64,000 bases of DNA from an uncultured Anaerolineales bacterium (GTDB taxonomy: Bacteria; Chloroflexota; Anaerolineae; B4-G1; SLSP01), in NCBI GenBank assembly GCA_964501335.1, contig CAZCTC010000010.1, forward strand, positions 64,001 through 128,000, written 5' to 3'. Position 1 is the first letter of the stretch; each line of letters begins with the position of its first letter. This document shows positions 6,914-51,290 of the stretch, piece by piece. The translations under genes were made by a program, and so were the position numbers. A model generated the notes under the pieces. It ran no database searches. It had not been told where the DNA came from and was given only the letters and a program-made list of their open reading frames with translations.

Positions 6914-7073
6914 GGGCCTCCTGGGATGGTTGGGAAATTGGATGTGGAAGGTATACCTCATTTTGCGGGAGTGGCAAGGGAGCGGCACCTGGAAGGATGA
7001 AAAAGAGATTTCACCGCAGAGGCACAGAGAACACAGAGAAGAAGAGAGGAGATTTTTCTGAATTTTCTCTGTA

Positions 7074-7386
7074 AAAAGGGCTATGTTTTGGCGGGGCCCT
7101 CACCCCCTGCCCCCTCTCCCCTATTTTGTTGTTAAGTAGCGACGCGATTCGAGTGGATGCGTTTTGGGGTATAGCTGCGAGCGATGCGGGAGGGAGAGGG
7201 GGGAAGAGCGTGCCGCCGGGGCGGTTCTGAAAAAGGGCTATGTTTTGGCGCGGCCCTCACCCCCTGCCCCCTCTCCCCTATTTTGTTGTTAAGTAGCGAC
7301 GCGATTCGAGTGGATGCGTTTTGGGGTATAGCTGCGAGCGATGCGGGAGGGAGAGGGGGGAAGAGCGTGCCGCCGGGGCGGTTCTG
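7074..7386. repeat. two near-identical 157-bp direct tandem units
   Basis: Units span 7074-7230 and 7231-7387 and differ at one position. Each contains a C-rich tract (ccctcaccccctgccccctctcccc) and a complementary G-rich tract (gggagggagaggggggaagag). Confidence 0.85.
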
Positions 7387-20967: not shown

Positions 20968-21176
20968 ACATTTTGCTGAGTGCTCTCGTTTAACGAATAA
21001 GCCGGACAAAAGGGACCGGAATGGAATTGCTTTTATTGATTAAAACATGGATCACAGCCATCCGGGCGCTCCAGAATCAGATCTCTGTCTGGTTTTTGGA
21101 GCAAATTGCGGTTGGACGGCGATTTTTCTTCAGATATGAAGGCTCAGAGGCCGAACCGGCCACGCCTGATTTGATT

Positions 21177-21716
21177 ATGAGCTTTCAGCAAGGGCATCCC
21201 GAAGCATTTGAGCTGATCTATCAACGATTTAAGAACTATGTCTATCGGGTGGCCTGTTTTTTGGTGCGGGACGATGTGGAAGCTGAGGATGCAGTTCAGG
21301 AGACTTTTCTGGATGTGTTGCATGGATTGCCGCATTATGTACCCAGTGAGAAGGCCGCCTTTGAGACCTGGCTTTATCGGGTTACCATCAATCGTTGTAC
21401 TACCCGATTGCGGCGTAAGGTTTTGCCGTCGACCGATTGGGATGAGATGACGGAACAGATGGAGAATTTACCGACTCCTGATCTGGAAGGCGATCCGGAA
21501 GCGGTTTGTCTGGGCCATGAGGAGACCCTGACGTTGTGGCGGGCCGTCGATACATTGTCGGAGGAGCATCGCGCGGTATTGGTGTTGCGTTATGGACAGG
21601 ATTTGGGGTATGAAGAGATTGCTCAGGTTTTAAATATCAATTCAGGGACGGTGAAATCACGCCTGTTCAATGCTCATCGCAAGTTGCGGTCGGTTTTAGA
21701 GGCCATGAGTGGATAA
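21177..21716 (+). CDS. ECF-family RNA polymerase sigma factor (sigma-70 regions 2 and 4)
   Basis: Region 2 FELIYQRFKNYVYRVACFLVRDDVEAEDAVQETFLDV. Region 4 HTH LSEEHRAVLVLRYGQDLGYEEIAQVLNINSGTVKSRL. The start is placed at internal Met 21177 for a 179-aa product; the ORF is open from 21021. Confidence 0.8.
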   Translation: MSFQQGHPEAFELIYQRFKNYVYRVACFLVRDDVEAEDAVQETFLDVLHGLPHYVPSEKAAFETWLYRVTINRCTTRLRRKVLPSTDWDEMTEQMENLPTPDLEGDPEAVCLGHEETLTLWRAVDTLSEEHRAVLVLRYGQDLGYEEIAQVLNINSGTVKSRLFNAHRKLRSVLEAMSG

Positions 21717-21732: not shown

Positions 21733-24700
21733 GTGAGTAGAAACCATGTGGAGCAGGAATTGCTGGCCTATCTGGACGGAGCATTGGATGCACGGACCCG
21801 AAGCCGGGTCGAAGCGCATCTGAAGGAATGCCCGACCTGTACGGCTGAGCTGGCGCGGTTGAAGCGGCAACGCCTGATATTGGGGCAGGTTTTCAAGATC
21901 AAATTGGGGGAGAAGCAGTTGCCGGCGGCGGCCGATCGCCGGATTCGGACCCGGCTGCGTCAGGAAGCGGAGCCACGCCGGGAATGGTGGTGGGCCTGGC
22001 GCGGTGGGTTGACGCAGGTGGCCCTGGCTTTTATGGCAGTGGCGATGGTGATCACGGCCTGGCCGTTTCTGTCACCTTCGACCTCTCCTGCCGTTCTTCC
22101 GACTGTTCCGCCGCGGACCGAGGTGATGGGACAGAGCCGGCTGGCGCCGGGAAGCCGGGCGGCGATGCGGATCGTGGTGAGAGAACAATTATCTCCGCAG
22201 CCGGTTTCGGGGGCCGAAATTGAAGTGCGGTTGGGCAAGGTGCCCGGACTGGCGGCGTTGGTCTATCGGGGCCGGACGGATGCGGAAGGCATGGTCCAGG
22301 CGGCCTTTACGGTGCCGGAAGAGCTGGAAGGGGCGGTCAATCTGGTGGTGAAGACCGTGGTGGCCGGGCAAAGTGGAGAGATCGTGCGGCCGATTGTGGT
22401 GGTGCGCAGCGCCCGTCTTTTTTTGAATTCCGACAAACCGGTTTATCGGCCCGGGCAGGAGCTGTTTGTGCGGGCGCTGGCATTGGATGCGATGAACCTT
22501 CGCCCGGTGGTTGGGGGGCAGGTGGCTTTTGATATTTTGGACAGCAAGGGGCGTTCCTTAAATCATCAGGTATTGAGGGCTTCGGATTATGGGGTGGCTG
22601 CCTTTACCTGGAAAGTAGCCGATGATTATGCCGACAAGTCGTTGACTTTAAGAGCGACCATCAGTGATACCGTGTCGGAACGTCAGGTAATGGTAGGGGC
22701 TTATCCGCGGGCAGCTTTTCGGCTGAATGTTGAACCGGGACGGACCTTTTATGCCCCCGGGAATCGGGTGACCGGTACCGTTCAGGCTGATTATTTTTTT
22801 GGAAAGGCAGTGGCGGACGCCATGGTGCGGATTGTCGGGCGGCAGGGGGGGGCGGCTGGCGTCATCATAGCCGATGTCAGCGGGCGTACGGATGCCCTGG
22901 GACGGTTCGATTTTACTTTCAATTTGCCACTGGAAGATAGCTGGCGTGAGTTGGGTGGGCAGCCGGACATTCTCTATCTGACTGTGTCGGCGACCGACAG
23001 CGCCGGTCGGACCGAAGGAGTACGTCGGGAGATGCCGGTTTCCCGGGCGGGTCTTCTGATCCAGGCGGTTCCGGAGCGGGGCAGTTTGAAGCCGGGGGTT
23101 GAGAATATCATCTACATTTCGACGGCTTATCCAGATGGACAACCGGCTGCGACGGAGATGGAAATTATGGTTGGAGATGTGTCTTATCAGGTAGCGACCG
23201 ATTCTTACGGCATGGGGGAATTTCGGCTGAAGCCTTTGACTGAGACGGTGATGCTGGAGATTGTCGCTCATGATGAGCAGGGGCAGACGGGCGCCCGGGT
23301 TTTCAATCTGGCAAGCTTTTATGGATCGAAGAGTGTGTTAGTGCGAACCGATGGAGCGATCTATCGAGTAGGGGATACCCTGCATGTGGAAGCTTTGACG
23401 GCGGGGGAAATTCGTCAACTCTATCTGGATGTGTTGCAGGCCGGGCAGTCGGTGGCTATGCTTTCGGGGTTTGTGGAAGAGGGGCGGGCGGCCTGGGCGA
23501 TCGATTTGGACAGCTCGCTGGCAGGGACTCTGGAACTGCATGTGTATGCGGCGGACGATGAGACCCTGGAGGATAGCCGTTCTGTGGTGGTCGATCCGGC
23601 GAATGAGGTTGCCGTGCAGGTGACGGCGGATCGGGCGGTCTATCGGCCTGGAGAGCAGGCCCATTTACAGTTTCAGACAACTTTGACGGAGTCCGGGAAG
23701 TCCCTGCCGGCGCAGGCTTTGCTGGGAGTGGGTGTTGTTGATGCGTCGGTTTATGCGTTGGAACAGTTGCCGGTGGGCTTTGCCCGCACCTATTTTCTGT
23801 TGGATAAAAAATTATCCAGTGTGCCTCAATTGGGTTTTGCCGTGGATCAGGGTTTGGCGGCCGGGTCGGAAAATAGAGCGGTTCGTCTGGCGCAGAGTCG
23901 CGCTGCTGAGGCGGCCTGGGCCTTGGCCGGCGATTCTCCGATCGGAGAAAGGAGGCTTTATGCATTGTCCGTTTCTTATGACGTGCGTTCATCGGCGCAA
24001 AATCAGAAGTCGCCTTCCGATGGGGTGCGGAGACTGTTGGCAGGAATCCTTCTGATATTGGCGATTTTTCTGTGGGTTGTTGTAATTCAGACCCTGTTCC
24101 GGTTGGAGTTAGTGAGAGCGGCTTTGCCCTGGATGGGGGGGGGGATGGTATTTGCTTTTCTGGTCTCACCGCTGCTCTTCTCGCTTACTTCATGGTTGGT
24201 TAATGGCTTGGTTTCGGTGTTGGGGAACTGGATGTTGTTGGTTTTCCTGATTCCGATGGTGGGCCTGTGGGGATTTTTGTGGCGGCAGGGGTGGCGCCGG
24301 CAGGATGTCAGGTTACAGGAAGCGATGGCCATCGTGGGCGCCTATGGGATTTGTGAGAGTTTGCTGATCGTATTGACCCGTGAAAGCCAGAATTTGGCGG
24401 AATTCGAGACGGTGGTGGCGGTCTTTTCTTTTCTGGTATTGCTGGGAGGCATGCTCTTGCTGGGGGCCAGTTTGTGGTTCGAGGGGCATCGTAAGCCGGC
24501 CGGATGGAGCCTGGCTCTGGTGATCGTGTGGGTGATGCTTTCTTTGGCCTTGCCGTCGATCCCGGCCATTTCTTCCCGATTGACTCAGACATTGGGCGAG
24601 CCGGTGCTTTATGCCGGGCCGTTGGGCTGGTTGAGCGGGTGCGCGGCTCCGATGAGTCCTACTGCGGCTCCGACTACAGAGGCTCCGGCTGTTGAGGAGC

Positions 24701-25323
24701 CGACCGAAGCGGCTACAGAAGAAGCAACGGAAGCGCCGACCGAAGAGGCAACTCAGGAAATTCCTACTGCGGCTCCGACTGCTGCGCCGCCGACTGCTAC
24801 GCCCGTTCCAACGCCGGGAATTGAAGTGCCGATGGAACCTTTCCCGTTGCGGCAGTTTTTCCCGGAGACCCTTTACTGGAATGCAGCAGCTGAGACCGAT
24901 GCTGAAGGGCGATGGGATCTGGATTTGCCGTTGGGGGACAATGTGACGACCTGGCGGGTGACGGCGCTGGCTTCAACTCAAGATGGTGCTTTGGGGGCCG
25001 TAGTTTACGATCTGCCGGTCTCTCAGGATTTCTTTATGGAGCTGAATTTACCTGAAACGGTGCGTAGCGGGGCCGAGGTGACCGGTACAGCTACGTTGCA
25101 CAACTATTCACAGGTCAGTCAGACCGTGCAGGTGCAGTTCGCGCCGGCGGACTGGTATGAGGTGCAGGTTTCTTCCGGGACGGTAACGTTAGGACCGGGG
25201 CAGGTAGTTGCCGTGGACTTTGTGTTGAAAGCCGGGCAGGTTGGGAAGTTCACTCTGTTGGTTAAGGCAAACGGGGAGGGAGTCCAGGATGCTCTGGCCC
25301 GGGAAGTCGTGGTCCATGAGTGA
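21733..25323 (+). CDS. anti-sigma factor (zf-HC2 N-terminus) fused to a very large extracytoplasmic domain, an internal multi-TM block, a Pro/Thr/Glu/Ala-rich linker and a C-terminal beta-rich domain
   Basis: GTG start 17 nt after the sigma gene. N-terminus ELLAYLDGALD...HLKECPTCTAEL is the anti-sigma zinc-finger signature. TM helix at about aa 95. About 8 predicted TM helices at aa 760-950. Linker APTTEAPAVEEPTEAATEEATEAPTEEAT. Confidence 0.75.
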   Translation: MSRNHVEQELLAYLDGALDARTRSRVEAHLKECPTCTAELARLKRQRLILGQVFKIKLGEKQLPAAADRRIRTRLRQEAEPRREWWWAWRGGLTQVALAFMAVAMVITAWPFLSPSTSPAVLPTVPPRTEVMGQSRLAPGSRAAMRIVVREQLSPQPVSGAEIEVRLGKVPGLAALVYRGRTDAEGMVQAAFTVPEELEGAVNLVVKTVVAGQSGEIVRPIVVVRSARLFLNSDKPVYRPGQELFVRALALDAMNLRPVVGGQVAFDILDSKGRSLNHQVLRASDYGVAAFTWKVADDYADKSLTLRATISDTVSERQVMVGAYPRAAFRLNVEPGRTFYAPGNRVTGTVQADYFFGKAVADAMVRIVGRQGGAAGVIIADVSGRTDALGRFDFTFNLPLEDSWRELGGQPDILYLTVSATDSAGRTEGVRREMPVSRAGLLIQAVPERGSLKPGVENIIYISTAYPDGQPAATEMEIMVGDVSYQVATDSYGMGEFRLKPLTETVMLEIVAHDEQGQTGARVFNLASFYGSKSVLVRTDGAIYRVGDTLHVEALTAGEIRQLYLDVLQAGQSVAMLSGFVEEGRAAWAIDLDSSLAGTLELHVYAADDETLEDSRSVVVDPANEVAVQVTADRAVYRPGEQAHLQFQTTLTESGKSLPAQALLGVGVVDASVYALEQLPVGFARTYFLLDKKLSSVPQLGFAVDQGLAAGSENRAVRLAQSRAAEAAWALAGDSPIGERRLYALSVSYDVRSSAQNQKSPSDGVRRLLAGILLILAIFLWVVVIQTLFRLELVRAALPWMGGGMVFAFLVSPLLFSLTSWLVNGLVSVLGNWMLLVFLIPMVGLWGFLWRQGWRRQDVRLQEAMAIVGAYGICESLLIVLTRESQNLAEFETVVAVFSFLVLLGGMLLLGASLWFEGHRKPAGWSLALVIVWVMLSLALPSIPAISSRLTQTLGEPVLYAGPLGWLSGCAAPMSPTAAPTTEAPAVEEPTEAATEEATEAPTEEATQEIPTAAPTAAPPTATPVPTPGIEVPMEPFPLRQFFPETLYWNAAAETDAEGRWDLDLPLGDNVTTWRVTALASTQDGALGAVVYDLPVSQDFFMELNLPETVRSGAEVTGTATLHNYSQVSQTVQVQFAPADWYEVQVSSGTVTLGPGQVVAVDFVLKAGQVGKFTLLVKANGEGVQDALAREVVVHE

Positions 25324-27433: not shown

Positions 27434-27703
27434 ATGATAAAAAAGCGGAGTAACAAAATCTCCGGGGGGCCGCGCCGGAAGCCGGGGGCGGATTTTTTGG
27501 TCCAGATGTTTCAGGAGTTACACGATGCTGAGGTACGTTCTACTCCGGATTTGAGCATCTGTTACGAGATCCAGGCTGTGGAACCTGATCCGGTAACCGG
27601 GGCAGCTCAACCGGAGAAATCCCGGCAGCTTTTGCGAAGCCGGTTGGTCAAAACCAACCGCTTTCCTGCCGGTGTGGAGGGTGAGTTGGGGGAGGAACGA
27701 TGA
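27434..27703 (+). CDS. sixth family member: no signal peptide, degenerate C-terminal motif, translationally coupled to the radical SAM gene
   Basis: 89 aa. Motif SICYEIQAV is related to the type B SCYIVIDV. C-terminus LLRSRLVKTNRFPAGVEGELGE. Its stop overlaps the rSAM start (ATGA). Confidence 0.5.
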   Translation: MIKKRSNKISGGPRRKPGADFLVQMFQELHDAEVRSTPDLSICYEIQAVEPDPVTGAAQPEKSRQLLRSRLVKTNRFPAGVEGELGEER

Positions 27704-28815
27704 AAAGAAAAGAAGGAAAGCGGACCTGGCTTTCGCGGTGGCGGCAGGTGCTGGCTCAGGTAGAGATGCGGCAGGCGCAAAAGAGAGAGCCGGAACGGGC
27801 TTCTTATTTTATTCTGGAGTTGACGGCGCGTTGTAACCAGGATTGCCGGTATTGTTATAATGTCTGGAAGGCGCGCGAGGGGATGGTCCAACGGGAGATG
27901 ACGACCGAAGAGTGGTGCACGTTGATCGGTCGGTTACAGGACGAGATGGGCTGTCGGCAGGTGACTTTTTCGGGCGGGGAGCCGCTGCTGCGAGAGGATT
28001 TCCGTGAGATCCTGGCCTTCTGTCACCGGCGAGGGTTGGAGAGTATTGTGATTAGCAATGGCCGGTATCTGGACCAGGAGATGCTGGAATTCTGTCTGGC
28101 CCACGGGGTGAAGATGTTTGAAGTGACGCTGCTGGGTTCCAATGCGGCGACCCATGACGGATTGACGCGGGTGCCGGGCAGTTGGGAGCGGGCTCTTTCC
28201 GCGATGACCCGGCTTTACAAGGCCGGGGCTACCTGGTGCGGTGTTTTTGTGGCGACGAGTGAAAATATCGGGCAGGTGCGGGAGACGGTGGAGATGATGA
28301 TTGCGCTGGGGGCGAAGGTCATTATGTTTAACCGGTTCAATCCTGGCGGAGAGGGGGCCCGGCATCGCGATTTGATGCCGGCACCGGATGATGTGCAGAA
28401 GGCGTTGCGGGTTGTGGATGAGCTGGCTGTGGCGTATAATTTCCCTGCAACGGCTTCGGTGCCGGTGATGCCCTGTCTGGTCGATCTACACGGCTTTCAA
28501 CGGGTGCAATTTGGGTTTTGTGCGGCGGGGCGGGCGGGTTCTTATCCCACCATCGGGCCGGATGGCCGGGTGCGCCCTTGCAATCACAGTGCGACCATTC
28601 TGGGGGATTTTCATCAACAGTCGATGCAGGAGATGTTGGAGGGGCCTGCGTTGCGGGCTTTTACGGCCGTGGTGCCTGAGGTTTGCCGGCCCTGTCCGGG
28701 GCTGGATCAATGCCGGGCGGGGTGCAGGGCGGCTGCAGAGGTCTGTTTTGGTTCATTGGAAGAGCCGGAACCCTGGTTGAAGGCTAATTTAGAGCGATTG
28801 CCGCCTATGGTTTAG
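27700..28815 (+). CDS. radical SAM enzyme with a C-terminal SPASM-type auxiliary Fe-S cluster domain (peptide/protein maturase type)
   Basis: CX3CX2C motif CNQDCRYC near the N-terminus. SAM-binding GGEPLL. C-terminal Cys-rich block CAAGRAG...CNHS...CRPCPGLDQCRAGCRAAA. 371 aa. Confidence 0.85.
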   Translation: MKRKEGKRTWLSRWRQVLAQVEMRQAQKREPERASYFILELTARCNQDCRYCYNVWKAREGMVQREMTTEEWCTLIGRLQDEMGCRQVTFSGGEPLLREDFREILAFCHRRGLESIVISNGRYLDQEMLEFCLAHGVKMFEVTLLGSNAATHDGLTRVPGSWERALSAMTRLYKAGATWCGVFVATSENIGQVRETVEMMIALGAKVIMFNRFNPGGEGARHRDLMPAPDDVQKALRVVDELAVAYNFPATASVPVMPCLVDLHGFQRVQFGFCAAGRAGSYPTIGPDGRVRPCNHSATILGDFHQQSMQEMLEGPALRAFTAVVPEVCRPCPGLDQCRAGCRAAAEVCFGSLEEPEPWLKANLERLPPMV

Positions 28816-28825
28816 GCACATTGAG

Positions 28826-29150
28826 GGATGAAAAAGGAATTTCACCACAGAGGCGCAGAGATCACAGAGAAGAAGAAGAGAGGAGATTTTCTGAAACGTA
28901 AAAAGTAATGATCTGTGGGTTTGGTGCAACGGTGAAGGGAGGGGGTAAGCGGATGTTGCCGGGATGCTTTTGGAAAAAGCCATGTTTTTGCGCGCATTCT
29001 GATGCGCGCAAAAACATAAATAAAAAACTCTCTCTGCCTATCCAGCGCGGCGTATTGTAAGGGGAGAGTGCCATTTACGGGTGAGGAGGATTTTTCCAGA
29101 CAGGTGTAACGCACTCGGATCTTGCAATGATGGGCGGTTTGCCTTCAGAT
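28826..29150. repeat. dispersed intergenic repeat element, copy B (left arm, hairpin 28982-29017, right arm)
   Basis: Left arm ggatgaaaaaggaatttcaccacagaggcgcagagatcacagagaagaagaagagaggagattttctgaa matches 6995-7062. Hairpin atgtttttgcgcgc-attctgat-gcgcgcaaaaacat. Right arm aaataaaaaactctctctgcctatccagcgcgg. Confidence 0.8.
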
Positions 29151-32037: not shown

Positions 32038-32074
32038 GAAGGCGGCACTCTTAAGTTCGAGGGCGTCGCCGGGA

Positions 32075-32180
32075 CGGTTCTGGAAAAAGCCATGTTTTGG
32101 TGCGCCTTCTGAGGCGCACCAAAACATCAACAAAAAAATGCTCTCCTTCCATCCTGTGATGTGCTTCTTACGAGAAAAGT
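32075..32180. repeat. dispersed intergenic repeat element, copy C (hairpin 32092-32127)
   Basis: ggttctggaaaaagcc-atgttttggtgcgcc-ttctga-ggcgcaccaaaacat-caacaaaaaaatgctctcc... Confidence 0.75.
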
Positions 32181-32901: not shown

Positions 32902-34515
32902 GTGATGAACGCTTTTACACGGATGTTAAGTGGAGGAGTGATTTTAGGAACGCTGTTCCTGACGGCCTGTGGTACCCCTGTTCCTACCGGGGCTCCGACT
33001 CAAGAAATGCGGCTTGAGTCAGCAGCTACGGAAGAAGCCACGGAGGCGCCTTATGATTATGCGCCCGCAGCGACTGCGGCGCCCGCGTTTGACGAGGCGC
33101 TTGGGGGACCTTCGACCGGAGGATCGGCCGAACCGAACGATCAACCTTACGGCGATGTTTTCTTTGAGAACTATGGGGTCAATCCGGTCATCGACACGGA
33201 AGATGATCATTTTTCGACCTTTGCCGTGGATGTGGACACGGCTTCTTACACGGTAATGCGCCGCTATCTGGCCGACGGCAATCTGCCGGACAAAGACTCG
33301 GTGCGGGTCGAGGAATACATCAATTTCTTCGATCAGGAATATACGCCCCCAACGGAAGGCGCTTTTGCCATCCATCTGGAAGGATCGCCGGCGCCTTACG
33401 GTGAGAACAATTACTATCTGGTGCGGGTGGGGTTGAAGGGTTATGAAGTTCCGGCTGAAGAGCGGAAGCCGGTGGTACTCACCTTTGTGATCGATGTTTC
33501 CGGGTCGATGGGAGAAGGAAACCGGCTGGCATTGGTTAAGCAGGCTTTGCAACTGCTGGTGCAGAACCTTCGCCCTACGGATAAAGTTGCCGTCGTGGTG
33601 TACGGCGATGTGGCGCATGTGGTGCTGGAACATACCCCCGTTTCGGAATCCAACACCATTTTGCAGGCGATCAATCGTTTGCAGACCGAAGGGGCTACCA
33701 ATGCTGAGGATGGGCTGAAATTGGGTTATCAACTTGCAGATCAGGCTTTTGAAGATGGTGCCATCAACCGGGTGATCCTCTGCTCGGATGGGGTAGCCAA
33801 TGTAGGAAATACGGGGCCCGATTCTATTTTGCAGCAGATTCGCCGCTATGCCGACAATGGTATTTTTATGACGACCGTGGGCTTTGGGATGGGGAATTAC
33901 AACGATGTGCTGATGGAGCAACTGGCCGATGACGGCGACGGTTTTTACGCTTATGTGGACGATATCAAAGAGGCCGAGCGGGTCTTTGTGAACGATTTGA
34001 CTTCATCGTTACAGGTGATCGCCAAGGATGCCAAAATCCAGGTCGATTTCAATCCCCAGGTGGTGGCTCGTTATCGGCTGATCGGTTATGAGAATCGGGA
34101 TGTGGCCGATGAAGATTTCCGCAACGACAATGTGGATGCGGGTGAGATCGGGGTCGGGCACAGCGTCACGGCGCTTTATGAGGTGAAATTCCAGCGGGAG
34201 ATCGATCCTCAGGCGACGGCGATGACCGTGGCGGTGCGGTATGCCGATCCCGACAGCGGGAATGTGACAGAGATTTCCCGTTCGATCGCTCAGGCCGATC
34301 TGGCAACTGCTTTTGAGGCGACCTCGCCGCGGTTCCAGTTGGATGCGGTGGCGGCTGAATATGCGGAGATTTTGCGGGAGAGTTACTGGGCGCGCGGTTC
34401 AACGTTAGAAGCCCTGGTTTCTCAAGCGCGGCGGATTGCCGATGCTTTGCCGCAAGATGCAGAGGTGCGGGAATTTGCGGATCTGGTAGCCCGAGCCGCT
34501 CAGTTGCGGAGATAA
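32902..34515 (+). CDS. vWA-domain lipoprotein (YfbK-like architecture)
   Basis: Lipobox LTACG. MIDAS motif VLTFVIDVSGSMGEG, followed by CSDGVANVG. 537 aa. Confidence 0.8.
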   Translation: MMNAFTRMLSGGVILGTLFLTACGTPVPTGAPTQEMRLESAATEEATEAPYDYAPAATAAPAFDEALGGPSTGGSAEPNDQPYGDVFFENYGVNPVIDTEDDHFSTFAVDVDTASYTVMRRYLADGNLPDKDSVRVEEYINFFDQEYTPPTEGAFAIHLEGSPAPYGENNYYLVRVGLKGYEVPAEERKPVVLTFVIDVSGSMGEGNRLALVKQALQLLVQNLRPTDKVAVVVYGDVAHVVLEHTPVSESNTILQAINRLQTEGATNAEDGLKLGYQLADQAFEDGAINRVILCSDGVANVGNTGPDSILQQIRRYADNGIFMTTVGFGMGNYNDVLMEQLADDGDGFYAYVDDIKEAERVFVNDLTSSLQVIAKDAKIQVDFNPQVVARYRLIGYENRDVADEDFRNDNVDAGEIGVGHSVTALYEVKFQREIDPQATAMTVAVRYADPDSGNVTEISRSIAQADLATAFEATSPRFQLDAVAAEYAEILRESYWARGSTLEALVSQARRIADALPQDAEVREFADLVARAAQLRR

Positions 34516-41585: not shown

Positions 41586-42533
41586 TTGTTTCAACATATT
41601 TTAGTTCCTTTGGACGGATCGGTGTTAGCAGAATGTGTTTTGCCTCACGTTTTGACGATGGCGCGCACTTTCAACAGTCGGATTACCCTCTTAAAAGTTT
41701 TACAGCAGGAAGCTTCGTTTGAACAAATTGACCCTGTTTTCTGGCATATTGCCAAGACCGAAGCTCAGGCTTATCTGGCTCAATGGGCGGTAAAATTGCA
41801 GACTTTGGGCATAAGTGTTGAGACTCAGGTGCTGGATGGGCAACCTGCTGAGCGGGTGTTGGAATTTGCGCAACTTAATGATGTGGATCTCATTCTCTTA
41901 AGCAGCCATGGTCAGAGTGGATTGAGCGAATGGAATGTCAGTAGCGTGGTGCAGAAAATTATTATGCGGGCGAAATCTTCGATCATGATTATCCGGGCTT
42001 ACCAGCCGCTCCATTCGCAATGGGAAGCGCTGGTTTATCATCGATTTTTATTACCGTTAGATTGCTCGGCCCGGGCTGAGTGTGTCCTGCCGGCCGCGAT
42101 TATGTTGGCACGCTCTCACCATGTTCCGGTTTTGTTGGCCCATGTGGTTCAGCCTTTTGAATTACTTTGTCAGGATAGGGTTTCTTCTGAGGAACTGGAG
42201 GTGATTTCGAGAATGAATGAACGTAATCGTCTAGAGGCGGAACAATATTTTCAGCAAATTATCGCGCGTTATGAGGCTGATTTTAAACCGAACGTTTTGG
42301 TAAATTCCAGTGTTGGAGCTGCTTTGCATGATTTAGTAGAGCAGGAAAAGGTGGATTTGGTAATTCTAAGCGCGCATGGGCGCTCCGGGAATGTTCGTTG
42401 GCCCTATGGAGGGGTAGTGGTTAATTTTATTGCTTATGGTCATACCCCTTTGTTGATTGTTCAAGATTTACCTGTAGATCGAGGACCGATTTCTTTGGTA
42501 GATGTTTCTATGCAGGTACAAAAAGGCCATTGA
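41586..42533 (+). CDS. universal stress protein with tandem UspA domains
   Basis: Segments HILVPLDGS...LILLSSHGQSGLSE and LPLDCS...LVILSAHGRSG. Probable TTG start. Confidence 0.8.
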   Translation: MFQHILVPLDGSVLAECVLPHVLTMARTFNSRITLLKVLQQEASFEQIDPVFWHIAKTEAQAYLAQWAVKLQTLGISVETQVLDGQPAERVLEFAQLNDVDLILLSSHGQSGLSEWNVSSVVQKIIMRAKSSIMIIRAYQPLHSQWEALVYHRFLLPLDCSARAECVLPAAIMLARSHHVPVLLAHVVQPFELLCQDRVSSEELEVISRMNERNRLEAEQYFQQIIARYEADFKPNVLVNSSVGAALHDLVEQEKVDLVILSAHGRSGNVRWPYGGVVVNFIAYGHTPLLIVQDLPVDRGPISLVDVSMQVQKGH

Positions 42534-45500
42534 GTCTGCTCTTTTATTTTTAGGGCAGTTTTATTTAAAGGGTAAGGCAATAGAAAGTCGTAAGCGTGTG
42601 GTTGAAATAGAGAATCTGGCCTATCAGGTGGCAGAAGGGCATCGAATTTATCTTTCGCCCGGGAGTTCTCCCTCTTTGATTGACTGGTTAAAAGAACAAA
42701 GTCGCCTTCTGAGCGAAATCCATTTGATTTTTAGTCAGCGCAGGGATGAAGATCCGGCGATTTCTTATGCTTCCGAGTGGTTGTTGGATAATTTTTACAT
42801 TGTTCAACAAACCATTACTCAAATTAAAGAGGATCTTCCGGATAAATATTACCGTCAGTTGCCGAAACTGACTGGTGGGCCCTTGAATGATTATCCCCGG
42901 ATTTACGATATCGCACGGGAATTGATTAAAAATGCCGATGCGTTGCTGGATTTTCCTCAACTGATTGAGTTTGTGCGGGCTTATCAACAAATAACCCCTT
43001 TGACCATGGGTGAATTATGGGCTTTTCCCACGATGTTACGGTTGGGAATTTTGGATGTTTTGATTGAAGCTTTGATCGTTTTGAATGGACAACCTCAAGG
43101 CGAAAATCGACCTTTTCCTAAAATTGAAATGGCGGAGACTTTACGAGAAGATGGGGTGGTAGCCAATACGATCTTGAGTCTACGGATGTTGGAGGTGCAG
43201 AATTGGAATGATTTTTTCGAGCAGGTTAATTTAATTGATGCCGTGTTAGCGGAGGATCCGGCCCAAATTTACAAATATATGGATTTTGAAACGCGGAACC
43301 GTTATCGGCAAATTATTGAAAACCTGGCTTCTGCAACTGGATTTAGTGAGATGGCGGTAGCTCAGCTGGCCGTGAAACTGGCTCAGGCTGAAGCGGTTGT
43401 TTCCGGAGATGAGATCCATGTTGAAGCGCATGTGGGATTTTATCTGGCGGGGAATGGGCATAAAGTGTTAGAGAGCCGGTTGGGATTTCGGCCTCCTCCC
43501 GGGCAACGTTTACAGCGGGAAATTTGGGAAGCGCCGGTTTTTTTCTATCTCGGGAGCATCGGGGCCTTATCTATTTTTATTATGATTCCCCTGTTGATTT
43601 ATGTGATGGGTTGGGGAACTACCTGGCTACAATTGATGGCGATGGGGGTGTTGATTTTAGGGCCGGTGATGGCGGTGGCGATCGATTGGGTGAATTTTTT
43701 TATTACTCATGTAATTCCTCCCCGGGTTTTGCCCAAAATGGATTTTGAGAAAGGGATTGCCTCTGATTGTCGGACTATGGTTGTTATCCCTTCTTTATTG
43801 GTCGGGATTGCTGAAATTGATCCCTTGTTACGGCAGTTGGAACTTCATTTTTTAAATAATCCCGATCCCTGGCTGTCTTTTGCCCTGTTGACTGATTTTG
43901 CGGACAGTCTCCAGCCGGAGTTGCCTGATGATAACATTTTGTTGGCTCGGGTAAGCAGTGGAATTGAGGCTCTTAACCGTAAATATCGCCGTGACTCCAA
44001 TTCGCCTTTTTATCTGTTTCACCGACGGCGAAGCTGGAATTCTATGGAAGGGGTATGGATGGGATGGGAACGTAAACGGGGTAAATTGACGGAATTCAAT
44101 CAACTGTTGCAAGGGGATCCTTCGACCTCTTTTCAGGTGAAATTAGGAGAACTTGAGGTTTTATCTCAGATTCGTTATGTGATCACTTTGGATGCGGACA
44201 GCGTTTTGCCTTGGGATGCCGCTAAAAAATTGGTGGCGACATTAGCGCATCCTTTGAACTGGCCCCGATTTGATGATGTGACAGGGAAAGTGACTGCCGG
44301 ATATACAGTTTTGCAGCCTCGGGTTGAGTTGAAACCGGTCAGTGCCCGACGTTCTGTTTTTTCGCGAATTTTTTCAGGGGATACGGGGTTGGATTTGTAT
44401 ACTCGGGCAGTCTCCAATGTTTATCAAGATCTGTTAGGGGAAGGAATTTTTGTTGGCAAGGGGATTTACGATGTCAAAGCTTTTGATCGCAGTCTGGCGG
44501 GAAGAGTGCCTGAAAATGCTTTATTGAGCCACGATCTTTTTGAAGGGATTTTAGGGCGGGCTGGATTGGTGACGGATGTGGTTGTATATGAAGAATATCC
44601 TTCTCATTACCTGGCGCATGCTCAGCGAATTCATCGATGGGTAAGAGGCGATTGGCAATTGTTGCCCTGGTTGGGGCGTCGAGTTCGTACGGCGGATGGC
44701 GGAAAGATCCCCAGTCAGCTTTCTTTGATCGATCGTTGGAAAATTTTTGATAATTTACGCCGAAGCCTTTTGATTCCCTGGTTGCTGTTGATTTTTGTTT
44801 TGGGATGGACCGCGGTCTTGCCGGGGCCTCCCTGGATTTGGAGCTGGATTGGATTGCTGCCGTTAGGGGGAACTTTTGTCGTTACTTGTTTTGAAGGATT
44901 ATGGCGTTCGTTTACTCGGCCTTCTCGTCAGGTTTTACCCCCTTTATGGAGCGGGTTGGGGCGTTGGGTCATGGCTCTTATTTTTCTTCCTTTTGAGTCA
45001 TTGTTGTTATTGGATGCTATTGTGCGTACCCTGGTTCGTATTTTGGTAACCCATCGTTCTTTATTAGAATGGGTTCCGGCTGCTTATGCCGGGCAACAGT
45101 TGGAAACAGCGGAACAAAATCGTTTGGTCTGGCGGCGGATGGGATATGCTTCTGCTTTTGCCTTAGGTGTGGGGCTTTTGTTGTTTTCTTTCCGGCCGGC
45201 CGGGTTGGGGGTGGCAGCTCCTCTTTTGTTGATCTGGTTGTTTTCGCCTCAAATAGCTTTCTGGATCAGTTTGCCGTTGATTCAAAAATCACCCCCCTTA
45301 GCAGCATCCCAATTGCCGATTTTGCGGCGTTTGGCCCGACGCACATGGTTGTATTTTGAACATTTTGTGGGGCCGGATGATCATTGGCTACCGCCTGATC
45401 ATTTTCAGGAGACGCCTTTAGGTGTTACTACCCATTTGACCTCGCCTACCAATATGGGGATGGGAATGTTGGCTTCTCTGGCGGCTTATGATTTGGGGTA

Positions 45501-48500
45501 TGTAGGCCTGTTGGGCTTGACGTTGCGTTTGCGCGCTATTTTTGATACCTTGGAACAATTGGAACGTCATCGGGGACATTTTTTGAACTGGTATGATACT
45601 CGTACTCTGGTTGCCGTAGGATCTCAATATGTTTCAACTGTAGATAGCGGCAATCTGGCAGCTTCTTTTTTAATTTTCCGGCGAGGCGTGATGGAGTTAA
45701 CGAAAGCTCCGATCTGGCGTTGGGCTTACTGGCAGGGAATTCTGGATACGGTTGAAGTCTTGATCGAATTGTTATCCCCTTTGACCTCAGGGAGTCAGCC
45801 TTTGCTGGCATATCTTGAGCGGTTACAGCGGTATTTATGGAGTGGTCAGGACGATGAGACGATCTGGGGAAAATTACTTCAGGATCTTAACAGTGAGATG
45901 GTACGGACGGAACTGGATCGTTTGTTGATTGTGTGGGTAGAATCTTCATCTGAACTGGAACCGGAGTTGTTGCGAAGTTTGCGAATCTGGTTTGAGCGGT
46001 TTCGGCATCAGGTAGAGGTAGTGATTCAGGAATTGAACTTTCTGGTTCCCTGGCTTTTTTTGTTAGATGAAGCTCCCGTGGGGTTGAAAGAGGCCGAAGC
46101 CGGCTCCGTATTAGGGGAGGCCTGGAAGAAAATTCAGGCCGTTTTATCTTCTTCCGTTACTGTAGAGCAGCTCCCTGATGTTTGTCGGCGCGGTGAAGCT
46201 CTGTTGATGGGTTTACAAGCTGAATTGTCGATTTCTTCTGGCGATCCGGATGAAAGGTTAAGGTTGTGGATCTCGCAATTGCACGCCGCTTTACAAACTT
46301 CCCGGCTTAATGCTTCCGGTTTATACATTGCCTGTCAGGATCTGGCGGAGCGAGCGGAACAGTATTTTCGAGAGATGGATTTCAGTTTTTTGCTGGATCC
46401 GCAACGGCTGGTTTTTCATCTGGGATATAACGTTGAATCGGGTCGTTTGGATGCTAATTATTATGATTTACTGGCTTCAGAGGCCCGGATTGCGAGTCTG
46501 GTGGCGATTGCTAAAGGGGATGTGCCTCAGATCCATTGGCTTCATTTAAGCCGTCCTGTGGCTTTGATGGATCATGGGCGGGGTTTGATTTCCTGGAGCG
46601 GGACTATGTTTGAATATCTGATGCCGCTTTTGTTTATGAAAGACGATCCGGATACTTTGTTGGGACAAAGTGTGCGGGCAGCGGTGGATGTTCAAATTCA
46701 TTATGGCCGTCGGAAAGCCACCCCTTGGGGAGTTTCGGAATCAGCTTACTATCATTTTGATGCGGCTTTGAATTATCAGTACAAAGCCTTTGGGGTTCCT
46801 GGTTTGGGTTTTAAACGAGGGTTGGGCGAGGAATTGGTCATAGCGCCTTATGCATCTCTGTTGGCGTTGTCTTTGCGACCGCAGGCGGTCTGGAAAAATA
46901 TAGTGGCTTTGTTGAAAGTGGGATTGTTGGGGGATTATGGTTTTTATGAGGCCATCGATTATACCCCTGCTCGAATGGGGTTGGGCCAGGGATCAGGGCT
47001 GGTTAAAACTTACATGGTGCATCATCAGGGGATGATTTTATTGTCCTTAACGAACTATTTACTGGATCAGGTGATGGTGCAGCGCTTCCATGCTGATTTG
47101 CGAATTCAAAGTGTAGAGCTGTTGTTGTATGAACAGGTTGCTGCCGTGCTTTCGGCCGGACCTCTTGATGCAACTGCTATCGCTCCTGCCCGGCCTGAAA
47201 AACCTCAAACTATTTATGGAGCCTGGAATATACCTTTGACCAGCCAGATCATGCAATCGCATTTGCTTTCTAATGGGCGTTATACTGTTTTCCTGACTCA
47301 AAGCGGCAGTGGGTACAGTGCCTGGAATGCTTTTGCTTTAACCTGGTGGCGGGCGGATTCTGTTTTGGACGATTACGGGACCTGGATTTATGTGCAGGAA
47401 CAGGGGGGGGATAACCTTTGGTCGGTGAGTTTTCAGCCTACCGCGGCCTGGGTTGAGAATCAAAATGTGTACTTTTCACCTCACCAGGTGGAATACCGTT
47501 GCCGGCATCGGGATATTTCTTTTCAGACTTTAATTACGGTTTCCCCTTATGAGGATGTAGAGATTCGGGTGGTCATGTTGACCAATCATACGGATCGAAA
47601 ACGTCAGCTGCGTCTGACGAGTTATGGAGAAGTGGCGCTGGCTCGCTTCGAAGATGTGCAACGGCACCCGGTTTTCAATAAGCTTTTTATTGAAAGTGAA
47701 TATCTTCCGGAAATCAACGGGCTTTTATTTCGCCGTCGCCCCCGTTCTGTGGATGATCCGACTTTTTATTTTGTTCATATGGTGGTTCCAGAATCGGGAG
47801 TATCCGTTACCGGGGCCTACGAGAGCGATCGCGAGCGTTTTCTGGGAAGAGGTAGAACTTCTCGTCGGCCTCAGATTTTAGATCTGGATAGTTCCTGGCT
47901 CTCGGGGACGGCGGGGGCTACTTTGGATCCGGTGATGGCCCTGGGGCAGGAAATCGCATTACCTCCCCATGCTTTTTCCCGGGTGGCTTTTGTGACTTTG
48001 GTGGCTCGATCCCGTAAGGAAGCTCTGGCTCTGGCTGAACGTTATCGGGCCTGGGCGGTATTGGATCGGGTGGTTGAGCAGACTTCTTCGGCCGCGGAAC
48101 TGGAGCTTTACCAGTTGGGTATGGATACTCAAAATCTGGAAATGATACAGCAATTGCTTTCTCTCTTGATCTTTCCCCGCTTCCAGCTACGGGCCTCTAT
48201 GGATGTTCGTTCGGCTAATCGTTTGGGTCAGTCCGGGCTGTGGCCGTTTGGTATTTCGGGAGATTATCCGATTTTGCTGGTTAAGATTGCTTCAAAAAAG
48301 GGTTCCAGGGTGCTTCGGGAATTGTTGCGCGCTCATAATTATTGGCGCAATCGGCAACTTAAGATTGATTTGGTGATCTATAACGAAGGGGATACCGGTT
48401 ACAATCAGGATTTACAGGGATATCTTCGTCGTTTGATAGCTCATTCTGAGGGAGAAGCGTGGATTAATCGGCGTGGAGGGATCTTCCTTATTCAGGTTGC

Positions 48501-51145: not shown

Positions 51146-51179
51146 TAATCGACCTGGGCCGTTAGCGCGGAAAAGCGTG

Positions 51180-51290
51180 AGAAAAAAAACTGTGTTTTGG
51201 CGCGCCTTCTTATGCGCGCCAAAACATAAACAAAAAACTTTCTCTGCCCACCTTGCGCGTCGTGTCTTACGGGGGAAGTGTCCGGTGAGG
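51180..51290. repeat. dispersed intergenic repeat element, copy D (hairpin 51193-51226)
   Basis: tgttttggcgcgcc-ttcttat-gcgcgccaaaaca, followed by taaacaaaaaactttctctgcccaccttgcgcg... Confidence 0.75.

Follow-up and report, generated by a model that had tools for sequence, protein, structure and literature searches.

The subject of this analysis is a 64,000-nucleotide stretch of DNA from an uncultured Anaerolineales bacterium (contig CAZCTC010000010.1; hereafter the window), which encodes at positions 27700–28815 a radical S-adenosylmethionine (rSAM)/SPASM enzyme preceded by six small open reading frames (ORFs) on the same strand. We propose, with a probability of about 0.7, that these genes form a two-component system, the enzyme being the modifying component that oxidises Cys-Tyr (CY) sites of the six directly upstream proteins. 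The proposal builds on the composition of the six ORFs and on the linkage of the same motif to homologous enzymes in other phyla.

Ten CY sites were found over the six ORFs (CYTPMP, CYTPTP, CYTATP, CYAPVAP, CYEPTMS, CYIVIDV, CYAVAAP, CYEPTMP, CYLVIDV and CYEIQAV), and Cys-Tyr was their sole invariant internal element. The enrichment of CY in this array was far beyond chance, 10 of the 33 CY dipeptides of the 64-kb window (six-frame ORFs of at least 60 aa) lying within 2.4 kb. It was also evident in 38 homologous type A peptides (the type present in the window, described below) collected from public data, where CY dipeptides accounted for 111 of 125 Tyr residues and for 111 of 149 Cys residues. 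The initial annotation, made from the sequence alone, had described C-Y-(T/A/E)-P as the invariant element around each Cys of its peptide groups A and C; C-Y was indeed invariant, but Pro occurred at +3 in only five of the ten sites and was optional also within those two groups. The analogy it drew with the sulfatase motif C/S-x-P-x-R proved superficial, as the Pro is at +3 and optional, the Tyr at +1 is invariant and there is no Arg. No C/S-x-P-x-R was present at any CY site of the six peptides, the sole match being SSPHR in peptide 5, apart from the CY site of that peptide. No sulfatase was encoded nearby, nor did any partner protein have a Pfam match to a sulfatase domain. Elsewhere in the window, a giant ORF of 2867 aa (42502–51105, + strand) contained one ATCYLPW site which, given the size of the protein, is compatible with chance.

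The enzyme had approximately 50 homologues at > 60 % identity and hundreds at ~40 %. A scan of one genome per species with the signatures NRFNPGG[REK]G and CN[HQN]xCx[YH]CYN identified at least 561 species-representative genomes with a confirmed locus of this family, including members of the Chloroflexota, Planctomycetota, Myxococcota, Bacillota, Armatimonadota, Acidobacteriota, Patescibacteria, Zixibacteria, WOR-3 and Thermoplasmatota. Linkage between enzyme and motif was analysed in 85 loci, considering same-strand ORFs within 3 kb upstream of the enzyme. C-Y-x-P was present in such an ORF in 50 of these loci and almost absent from the remaining six-frame translations; (T/M/S)-C-Y without the Pro was found in 12 more loci, so that a CY partner was present in ~62 of the 85. 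CY density was sixfold higher in the upstream ORFs (2.06 per 1000 residues) than in other ORFs (0.33 per 1000 residues). The context of the 90 sites in upstream ORFs was strongly biased, with Thr at −1 in 50 of them, Pro at +3 in 49 and a preference for Met, Ala or Val at +4. The occurrence of the motif beside homologous enzymes across phyla strongly backs site-specific chemistry at the Cys(-Tyr), as foreseen in the initial annotation. The adjacent peptides are very probably the substrates of the enzyme.

An all-against-all BLAST comparison of the ORFs of 87 loci revealed no conserved protease, transporter, protein with a RiPP recognition element (RRE; RiPP, peptide that is made by ribosomes and then post-translationally modified) or other third gene; the only families that recurred were the enzyme itself and the type C partners described below. 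Towards the edge of the family, one locus from the Sandaracinaceae (L083:4360–4990, 33 % enzyme identity) encoded a tandem array of three small peptides with signal anchors, in which C-x-(P)-C-L-S-P replaces C-Y; conservation of the aromatic residue may thus not extend to every member there.

Five types of partner protein were distinguished, none of which contained a Pfam or NCBIfam family. Type A, found in the window and in loci L002, L003, L007 and L087, comprises T/P-rich proteins of 100–190 aa with one to five CY sites, a C-terminal helix and lipobox-like signals (..LSAAC or ..VTTAC). Type B, found in Anaerolineae, Chloroflexia, Thermoflexales and Acidobacteriota, consists of all-alpha proteins of ~230 aa with a twin-arginine translocation (Tat) signal (SRRDFMKLFG). 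At least 535 sequence clusters of type B were counted, some of them named ‘twin-arginine translocation signal domain-containing protein’ by NCBI; H91, H122, R125 and C132-Y133 were invariant, and H-x-x-R-x(4-8)-CY was present in 118 of 120 Tat proteins of this type. Type C proteins (Planctomycetota and Myxococcota) are membrane-anchored, 250–800 aa long, and contain one to four repeated modules of the form ...RPTEMRxATCYxPM.... Type D, from metagenome-assembled genomes (MAGs) of Bacillota (L008) and Vulcanimicrobiota (L009), resembles RiPP precursors, with an N-terminal helix region followed by four or five copies of KPTCYAPM. Type E proteins (Patescibacteria and archaea) span the membrane several times and carry a TCYMPM... 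tail at the C-terminus. In the Vulcanimicrobiota MAG (L009:3297–6065), a precursor consisting of a leader and four KPTCYAPM copies was followed by two tandem rSAM paralogues, which suggests that in some lineages processing takes two steps or involves a heteromer.

Outside the CY module the partner architectures were unrelated. With regard to a RiPP cluster in general, a helix resembling a recognition sequence and repeated core sites were observed; the length of many partners (200–800 aa), together with the lack of a conserved protease or transporter, makes the system look more like protein maturation than natural-product synthesis. A hidden Markov model (HMM) of the 50 residues that follow CY in type C (CY itself excluded) matched type B proteins ~10 residues past their CY (E-values 6e-5 to 0.03), and hhalign related the downstream helices of types B and C with a probability of 95 % (P=4e-8). 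The same program related the C-terminal tail of type A to the type C module with a probability of 61 % (P=8e-5). These HMM and profile–profile matches indicate that a CY site with a downstream helix forms a module common to the partner types. In type A this helix is at the extreme C-terminus, which is a follower position; in type D a similar helix seems to precede the repeats, although this is suggestive only. In an AlphaFold2 model of a type B protein (predicted local distance difference test score, pLDDT, 75), which was all-alpha and had no significant match in the PDB by Foldseek, both CY motifs lay in low-confidence inter-helix loops and may thus be accessible segments. The CY module is predicted to lie outside the cytoplasm on the basis of signal peptides in type A, Tat signals in type B and the distribution of positive charges in types C and E.

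The enzyme was confirmed as an rSAM/SPASM protein, in agreement with the initial annotation, which had noted its size, its CNQDCRYC sequence and its C-terminal Cys block. The rSAM motif is C45-x3-C49-x2-C52, and Pfam matches were obtained to Radical_SAM (E=6e-22), Fer4_12 and SPASM (E=2e-7). Eight Cys residues of the SPASM region were conserved across 25 homologues (C259, C274, C294, C329, C332, C338, C342 and C349), including a complete CX2CX5CX3C block (C329-x2-C332-x5-C338-x3-C342). Five of them (C294, C329, C332, C338 and C342) aligned with ligands C276, C317, C320, C326 and C330 of the anaerobic sulfatase-maturating enzyme (anSME). From the eight conserved residues, both auxiliary clusters of the enzyme are probably fully Cys-ligated, in the fashion of anSME. 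CYNVWK, NRFNPGG and RPCNHS are further signatures of the family.

An AlphaFold2 model of the enzyme built from the 25 homologues (pLDDT 92) comprised one N-terminal helix (residues 2–28), a partial TIM barrel and the SPASM domain, residues 1–35 being a single helix plus linker. The model contained no winged-helix RRE, and no PqqD match in Pfam was obtained at E≤0.1 for the enzyme, the 89-aa ORF at 27434–27703 or the neighbouring ORFs, which answers the question about an RRE that had been raised with the initial annotation. The N-terminal amphipathic helix (residues 1–35; window 27700–27804) was restricted to enzymes of the clade that accompanies type A peptides, being missing from homologues at ~40 % identity; that it docks the C-terminal follower helix of the peptides is speculation.

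To place the enzyme, models of the NCBIfam release of June 2026 were ranked by bit score, as a stand-in for a phylogeny. No curated family in NCBIfam or Pfam was above its cutoff for the enzyme, four distant homologues or any of the five partner types, and no names were found in the public collection for the window's own proteins. The top model was PqqE (TIGR02109), with 114.7 bits against a cutoff of 381 (99.6–115 bits including homologues). Scores were 98.5 bits for AhbD and 91.8 bits for NirJ2 (cutoff 500 for both), 88.1 bits for StsB (cutoff 625) and 73 bits for MftC (TIGR03962; 67–89 bits including homologues, cutoff 265); the enzyme and its homologues reached 51–54 bits with PapB (cutoff 340) and 46–50 bits with SkfB (cutoff 300). 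The enzyme is also not a member of TIGR04133 ‘rSAM_w_lipo’ (79 bits, cutoff 425), an uncharacterised rSAM/SPASM family whose pairing with a lipoprotein partner would make it a conceptual parallel. No QhpD model was among the best 25 NCBIfam matches. Membership in PQQ, heme, mycofactocin or other cofactor clades, which the initial annotation had named as speaking against its prediction, was rejected with scores at most 30 % of the cutoffs. Identity with PqqE was rejected on the score given above and on the lack of any match nearby to pqqA (E-x3-Y), pqqBC or PqqD. A sacti- or ranthipeptide maturase was rejected for want of an N-terminal RRE and on the StsB, PapB and SkfB scores, all far below their cutoffs. 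By structure, Foldseek placed SkfB, PqqE, SuiB and anSME about equally close to the enzyme (template modelling score, TM, 0.62–0.68), with SkfB at the top, and this ranking cannot decide the chemistry. The enzyme thus belongs to a large, unannotated family that is not anSME, PqqE or a known sacti- or ranthipeptide maturase.

The initial annotation had likened the enzyme to anSME, a resemblance that held for architecture but did not extend to a specific relationship. Both are single-polypeptide rSAM/SPASM proteins of ~370 aa without an RRE, both have the seven-Cys SPASM motif with one upstream Cys and thus two probably fully ligated auxiliary clusters, and the TM score of the enzyme to anSMEcpe (PDB 4K36–4K39) was 0.67–0.69. 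The target of anSME is a short Cys motif in export-bound proteins, and the present enzyme would act on such a motif too. These likenesses, and the export signals that the substrates share with sulfatases, speak for an anSME-like reaction in which the C-beta hydrogen of the Cys would be abstracted and the residue converted through a thioaldehyde to formylglycine before translocation. The sequence similarity is very low, however: TIGR03942, the anSME model, was outside the best 25 matches of the enzyme (< 57 bits, cutoff 349; 61 bits in the homologue of locus L052), and phmmer aligned the SPASM part alone to anSME (PDB 4k37, E=6e-4), leaving the rSAM core unaligned. The C/S-x-P-x-R substrates of anSME are sulfatases, whereas the partners here are non-sulfatase proteins whose C-Y-x-(P) motif lacks both the Pro at +2 and the Arg at +4. 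Formylglycine formation leaves the invariant Tyr at +1 unexplained, and we know of no role for formylglycine outside the active sites of sulfatases and phosphonatases. Identity with anSME was rejected on the low score, the lack of a sulfatase partner and the lack of C/S-x-P-x-R at the CY sites, and conversion to formylglycine appears quite unlikely.

By sequence, the closest relatives are PqqE and MftC. They gave the best full-length matches, phmmer aligning PqqE (PDB 6C8V) with the enzyme over its full length (E=3.5e-17), and both carry out SPASM-dependent oxidation of a Tyr-containing ribosomal peptide. That these top-scoring relatives both modify Tyr raises the alternative of Tyr-centred carbon–carbon chemistry, of the PqqE/MftC or cyclophane type, in which the ring or C-beta of the Tyr would be joined to a nearby residue (+2 or Pro) and the Cys would serve recognition or the ligation of an Fe-S cluster or metal. 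Fully ligated auxiliary clusters would fit carbon–carbon crosslinkers such as SuiB, and Y-x-P may be seen as resembling the three-residue aromatic-x-x motif. Such chemistry is nevertheless unlikely: the Cys is as invariant as the Tyr, the residue at +2 from the Tyr is Pro in only ~55 % of cases (otherwise Ala, Met or Val), and no model of a cyclophane maturase (YhhB and others) scored near its cutoff. The systems also differ in that there is here no PqqD or MftB RRE partner, no pqq or mft gene and no substrate with E-x3-Y or a C-terminal VY; instead, exported proteins with several sites would be modified.

The presence of NirJ2 and AhbD among the best NCBIfam matches (84–118 bits) might point instead to a cofactor or tetrapyrrole enzyme of the NirJ/AhbD kind, or to the attachment of a cofactor to the Cys, with the CY proteins as cofactor acceptors. 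The invariant His91, His122 and Arg125 near the CY of type B would suit such a role, as would the Tat pathway, which is a route for cofactor-loaded proteins. Against this, the cutoffs of 500 were missed by a wide margin, genes for heme d1, ahb or other cofactor pathways were not linked at the loci, and the CY sites of the type A peptides in the window lie in short T/P-rich segments without a conserved His, making this reading most improbable.

In the favoured scheme, in which the enzyme oxidatively modifies the CY sites themselves, the barrel of the RRE-less enzyme would directly bind an extended stretch of the form (T/M/L/V)-C-Y-x-(P/A), as anSME does with its peptide; PEVLCYAPVAPT would be an example of such a target. 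The LLxEGRFPxxVxxELK helix C-terminal to the sites would probably add affinity as a follower-type recognition element. The enzyme would then abstract a hydrogen atom at the Cys-Tyr dipeptide, and the two auxiliary [4Fe-4S] clusters would accept the second electron, giving a net two-electron oxidation. The likeliest product would be a covalent link within the motif between the Cys sulfur and the neighbouring Tyr, a link favoured by the fact that both residues are invariant and adjacent. As the module is predicted to lie outside the cytoplasm, the unfolded substrate would, like a sulfatase, be modified in the cytoplasm first and then exported by the signal-peptide or lipoprotein route.

Several points weigh against this proposal. 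Approximately 23 of the 85 loci had no CY partner, most of them with an enzyme identity of ≤ 35 %. The homology of the type A helix to those of the other types was moderate (61 %), and an HMM built from the type A tail only found no other partner type among all the loci. The export topology was judged by eye according to the positive-inside rule. The nearest relatives in sequence, PqqE and MftC, carry out carbon–carbon rather than sulfur chemistry, on Tyr. With eight Cys conserved, auxiliary cluster I would appear to lack the open coordination site that is present in the thioether-forming CteB, and this weakens the proposal of a thioether. The eight-Cys SPASM domain, in which no open iron site is obvious, argues somewhat against a classical sactionine mechanism, while fitting all the oxidative alternatives. 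Finally, the product and the target atom, like the timing and the role of the helix, are predictions from sequence comparison.

In terms of function, the closest systems are anSME with its sulfatases and QhpD with QhpC. QhpD, an rSAM/SPASM enzyme of the cytoplasm, acts on Cys residues of QhpC, the gamma subunit of quinohemoprotein amine dehydrogenase, which works outside the cytoplasm. It is conceptually the nearest case, a Cys of a protein rather than of a small antibiotic peptide being modified and no product being released by a protease. QhpD, however, links Cys to Asp or Glu, its operon encodes dehydrogenase subunits, and its motif and partners are unrelated. The sacti- and ranthipeptide maturases (AlbA, SkfB, CteB, PapB and StsB) are likewise rSAM enzymes with a SPASM or twitch domain encoded beside Cys-bearing precursors, and the CX3D repeats of PapB substrates are reminiscent of the repeated Cys motifs within one precursor seen here. 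Those enzymes have their own N-terminal RRE and act on N-terminal leaders, usually with a protease or transporter in the cluster, whereas in the present family the helix is C-terminal to the sites in most types, the SPASM region has eight rather than seven Cys and partners of 200–800 aa are possible.

The genes listed in Table 1 form a tightly packed + strand array in the window, with gaps of ≤ 25 nt and one overlap of 4 nt, in which the stop codon of peptide 6 overlaps the start of the rSAM gene (ATGA). The gene for the anti-sigma/alpha-2-macroglobulin (A2M) fusion ends 1 nt ahead of the peptide 1 ORF. ORFs 2–3 and 4–5 represent a tandem duplication of a two-gene unit (86–89 % nucleotide identity). 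In five of the six small ORFs the N-terminus consists of basic residues and then a hydrophobic segment, the exception being peptide 6, which has no hydrophobic N-terminus; peptide 1 is T/P-rich and has a signal- or lipobox-like N-terminus (..LAFSAAC). The middle part is rich in Thr and Pro in all six, and the conserved LLxEGRFPxxVxxELK helix, degenerate in peptide 6, forms their C-terminus; the C-terminal segment of peptide 2, for example, is LLTEGRFPKCVAEELK.

Table 1. Genes of the peptide–rSAM array; positions are those of the window
Feature	Position (nt)	Strand	CY sites (nt)	Remarks	Sequence
Sigma factor of the extracytoplasmic function (ECF) type	21021..21716	+		First gene of the packed array; same order in L002 and L087	
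Fusion of an anti-sigma factor (zf-HC2) with alpha-2-macroglobulin-like domains (MG2, A2M_BRD, A2M)	21733..25323	+			
Substrate peptide 1 (putative), 139 aa	25351..25770	+	25459, 25543, 25594	C-terminal helix	LREKLLVEGRFPEGVVKELK
Substrate peptide 2 (putative), 114 aa	25784..26128	+	25904 (CYAPVAP), 25952 (CYEPTMS)	C-terminal helix	LMEQLLTEGRFPKCVAEELK
Substrate peptide 3 (putative), 130 aa	26155..26547	+	26356 (CYIVIDV)	One CY site; C-terminal helix	LLREQLLAEGRFPDEVAKELK
Substrate peptide 4 (putative), 114 aa	26638..26982	+	26758, 26806	Paralogue of peptide 2	
Substrate peptide 5 (putative), 139 aa	27009..27428	+	27222 (CYLVIDV)	Paralogue of peptide 3	
Peptide 6, 89 aa	27434..27703	+	27560	One CY site; lineage-specific; degenerate tail	LLRSRLVKTNRFPAGVEGEL
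rSAM/SPASM enzyme, 371 aa	27700..28815	+		rSAM cluster C45/C49/C52; eight Cys in the SPASM region	

The anti-sigma/A2M gene was linked to the peptide and rSAM genes in three of five close loci. The sigma and anti-sigma(A2M) pair occurred in the window, L002 and L087 but not in L003 or L088, and its linkage is confined to the sub-clade of the window. A gene for a VWA/YfbK protein was found 7 kb downstream in the window (32902–34515) and adjacent to the peptide–rSAM genes in L002 (L002:526–5949); the anti-sigma/A2M, VWA/YfbK and peptide–rSAM genes may represent an envelope-stress regulon. Other neighbours of the enzyme encode a methyltransferase and a GNAT protein.

Repeats were also present in the window. 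A 73-nt intergenic element occurred in three copies (28955–29027, 32065–32137 and 51165–51237), the first of them just 3′ of the rSAM gene. It consists of a long G+C-rich hairpin (GCGCGC / GGTGCGC / GGCGCGC ... TTCTGA ...) followed by AAAACATAAAYAAAAAA, and the stems vary among copies by paired changes. The element had no match in Rfam and looks like a repetitive extragenic palindromic (REP)-like or terminator-like repeat. A 62-nt repeat with 87 % identity between its copies (GGCACnTGnAGGGATGAAAAAGnnATTTCACCnCAGAGGCnCAGAGAnCACAGAGAAGAAGA) was found at 6984–7045 and at 28815–28876, the second copy beginning at the rSAM stop codon, and a 157-nt unit at 7073–7386, apparently intergenic, was tandemly duplicated with 99 % identity. 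GC skew was positive in all 2-kb bins (mostly +0.16 to +0.31, falling to +0.03 to +0.06 at 36–40 kb), so that cumulative skew climbed monotonically over the 64 kb. Most long ORFs were on the + strand, an unusually strong strand asymmetry.

No description of the enzyme family, of the CY motif or of a Cys-Tyr modification made by an rSAM enzyme was found in the full-text literature searched, which included few subscription journals, or in a 2025 review of protein-derived cofactors; given this coverage, a prior description of the system may exist. An rSAM/SPASM maturase with a ribosomal substrate is a known kind of system, and what is new here is the motif that is targeted, the unusual kinds of substrate and, probably, the chemistry. 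Our more specific and tentative proposal, to which we give slightly less than an even chance, is that a dedicated RRE-less rSAM/SPASM enzyme carries out an undescribed Cys-Tyr modification on exported, lipid-anchored, Tat-dependent and membrane proteins, both in some archaea and in many phyla of bacteria. A new Cys-Tyr crosslink could be the result, which would serve the helical Tat partners as a protein-derived redox or metal-binding cofactor and would staple the structure of the T/P-rich, lipoprotein-like peptides of the window.

The pairing of motif and enzyme is ancient and widespread, which makes the finding of more interest than the initial annotation had stated. rSAM/SPASM enzymes are the chief source of newly found peptide chemistry, and the present family, with its sharply defined Cys-Tyr target, occurs in hundreds of species, mostly of uncultured lineages that include the Patescibacteria and archaea. 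The system is readily testable, as it needs one enzyme and one short substrate. Its partners are cell-envelope proteins rather than antibiotic-like peptides. If the proposal is true, rSAM-dependent maturation of proteins bound for export, of which sulfatases and QhpC are the main examples to date, would widen to a new and much broader set, and the family could be a source of a novel crosslink or protein-derived cofactor.

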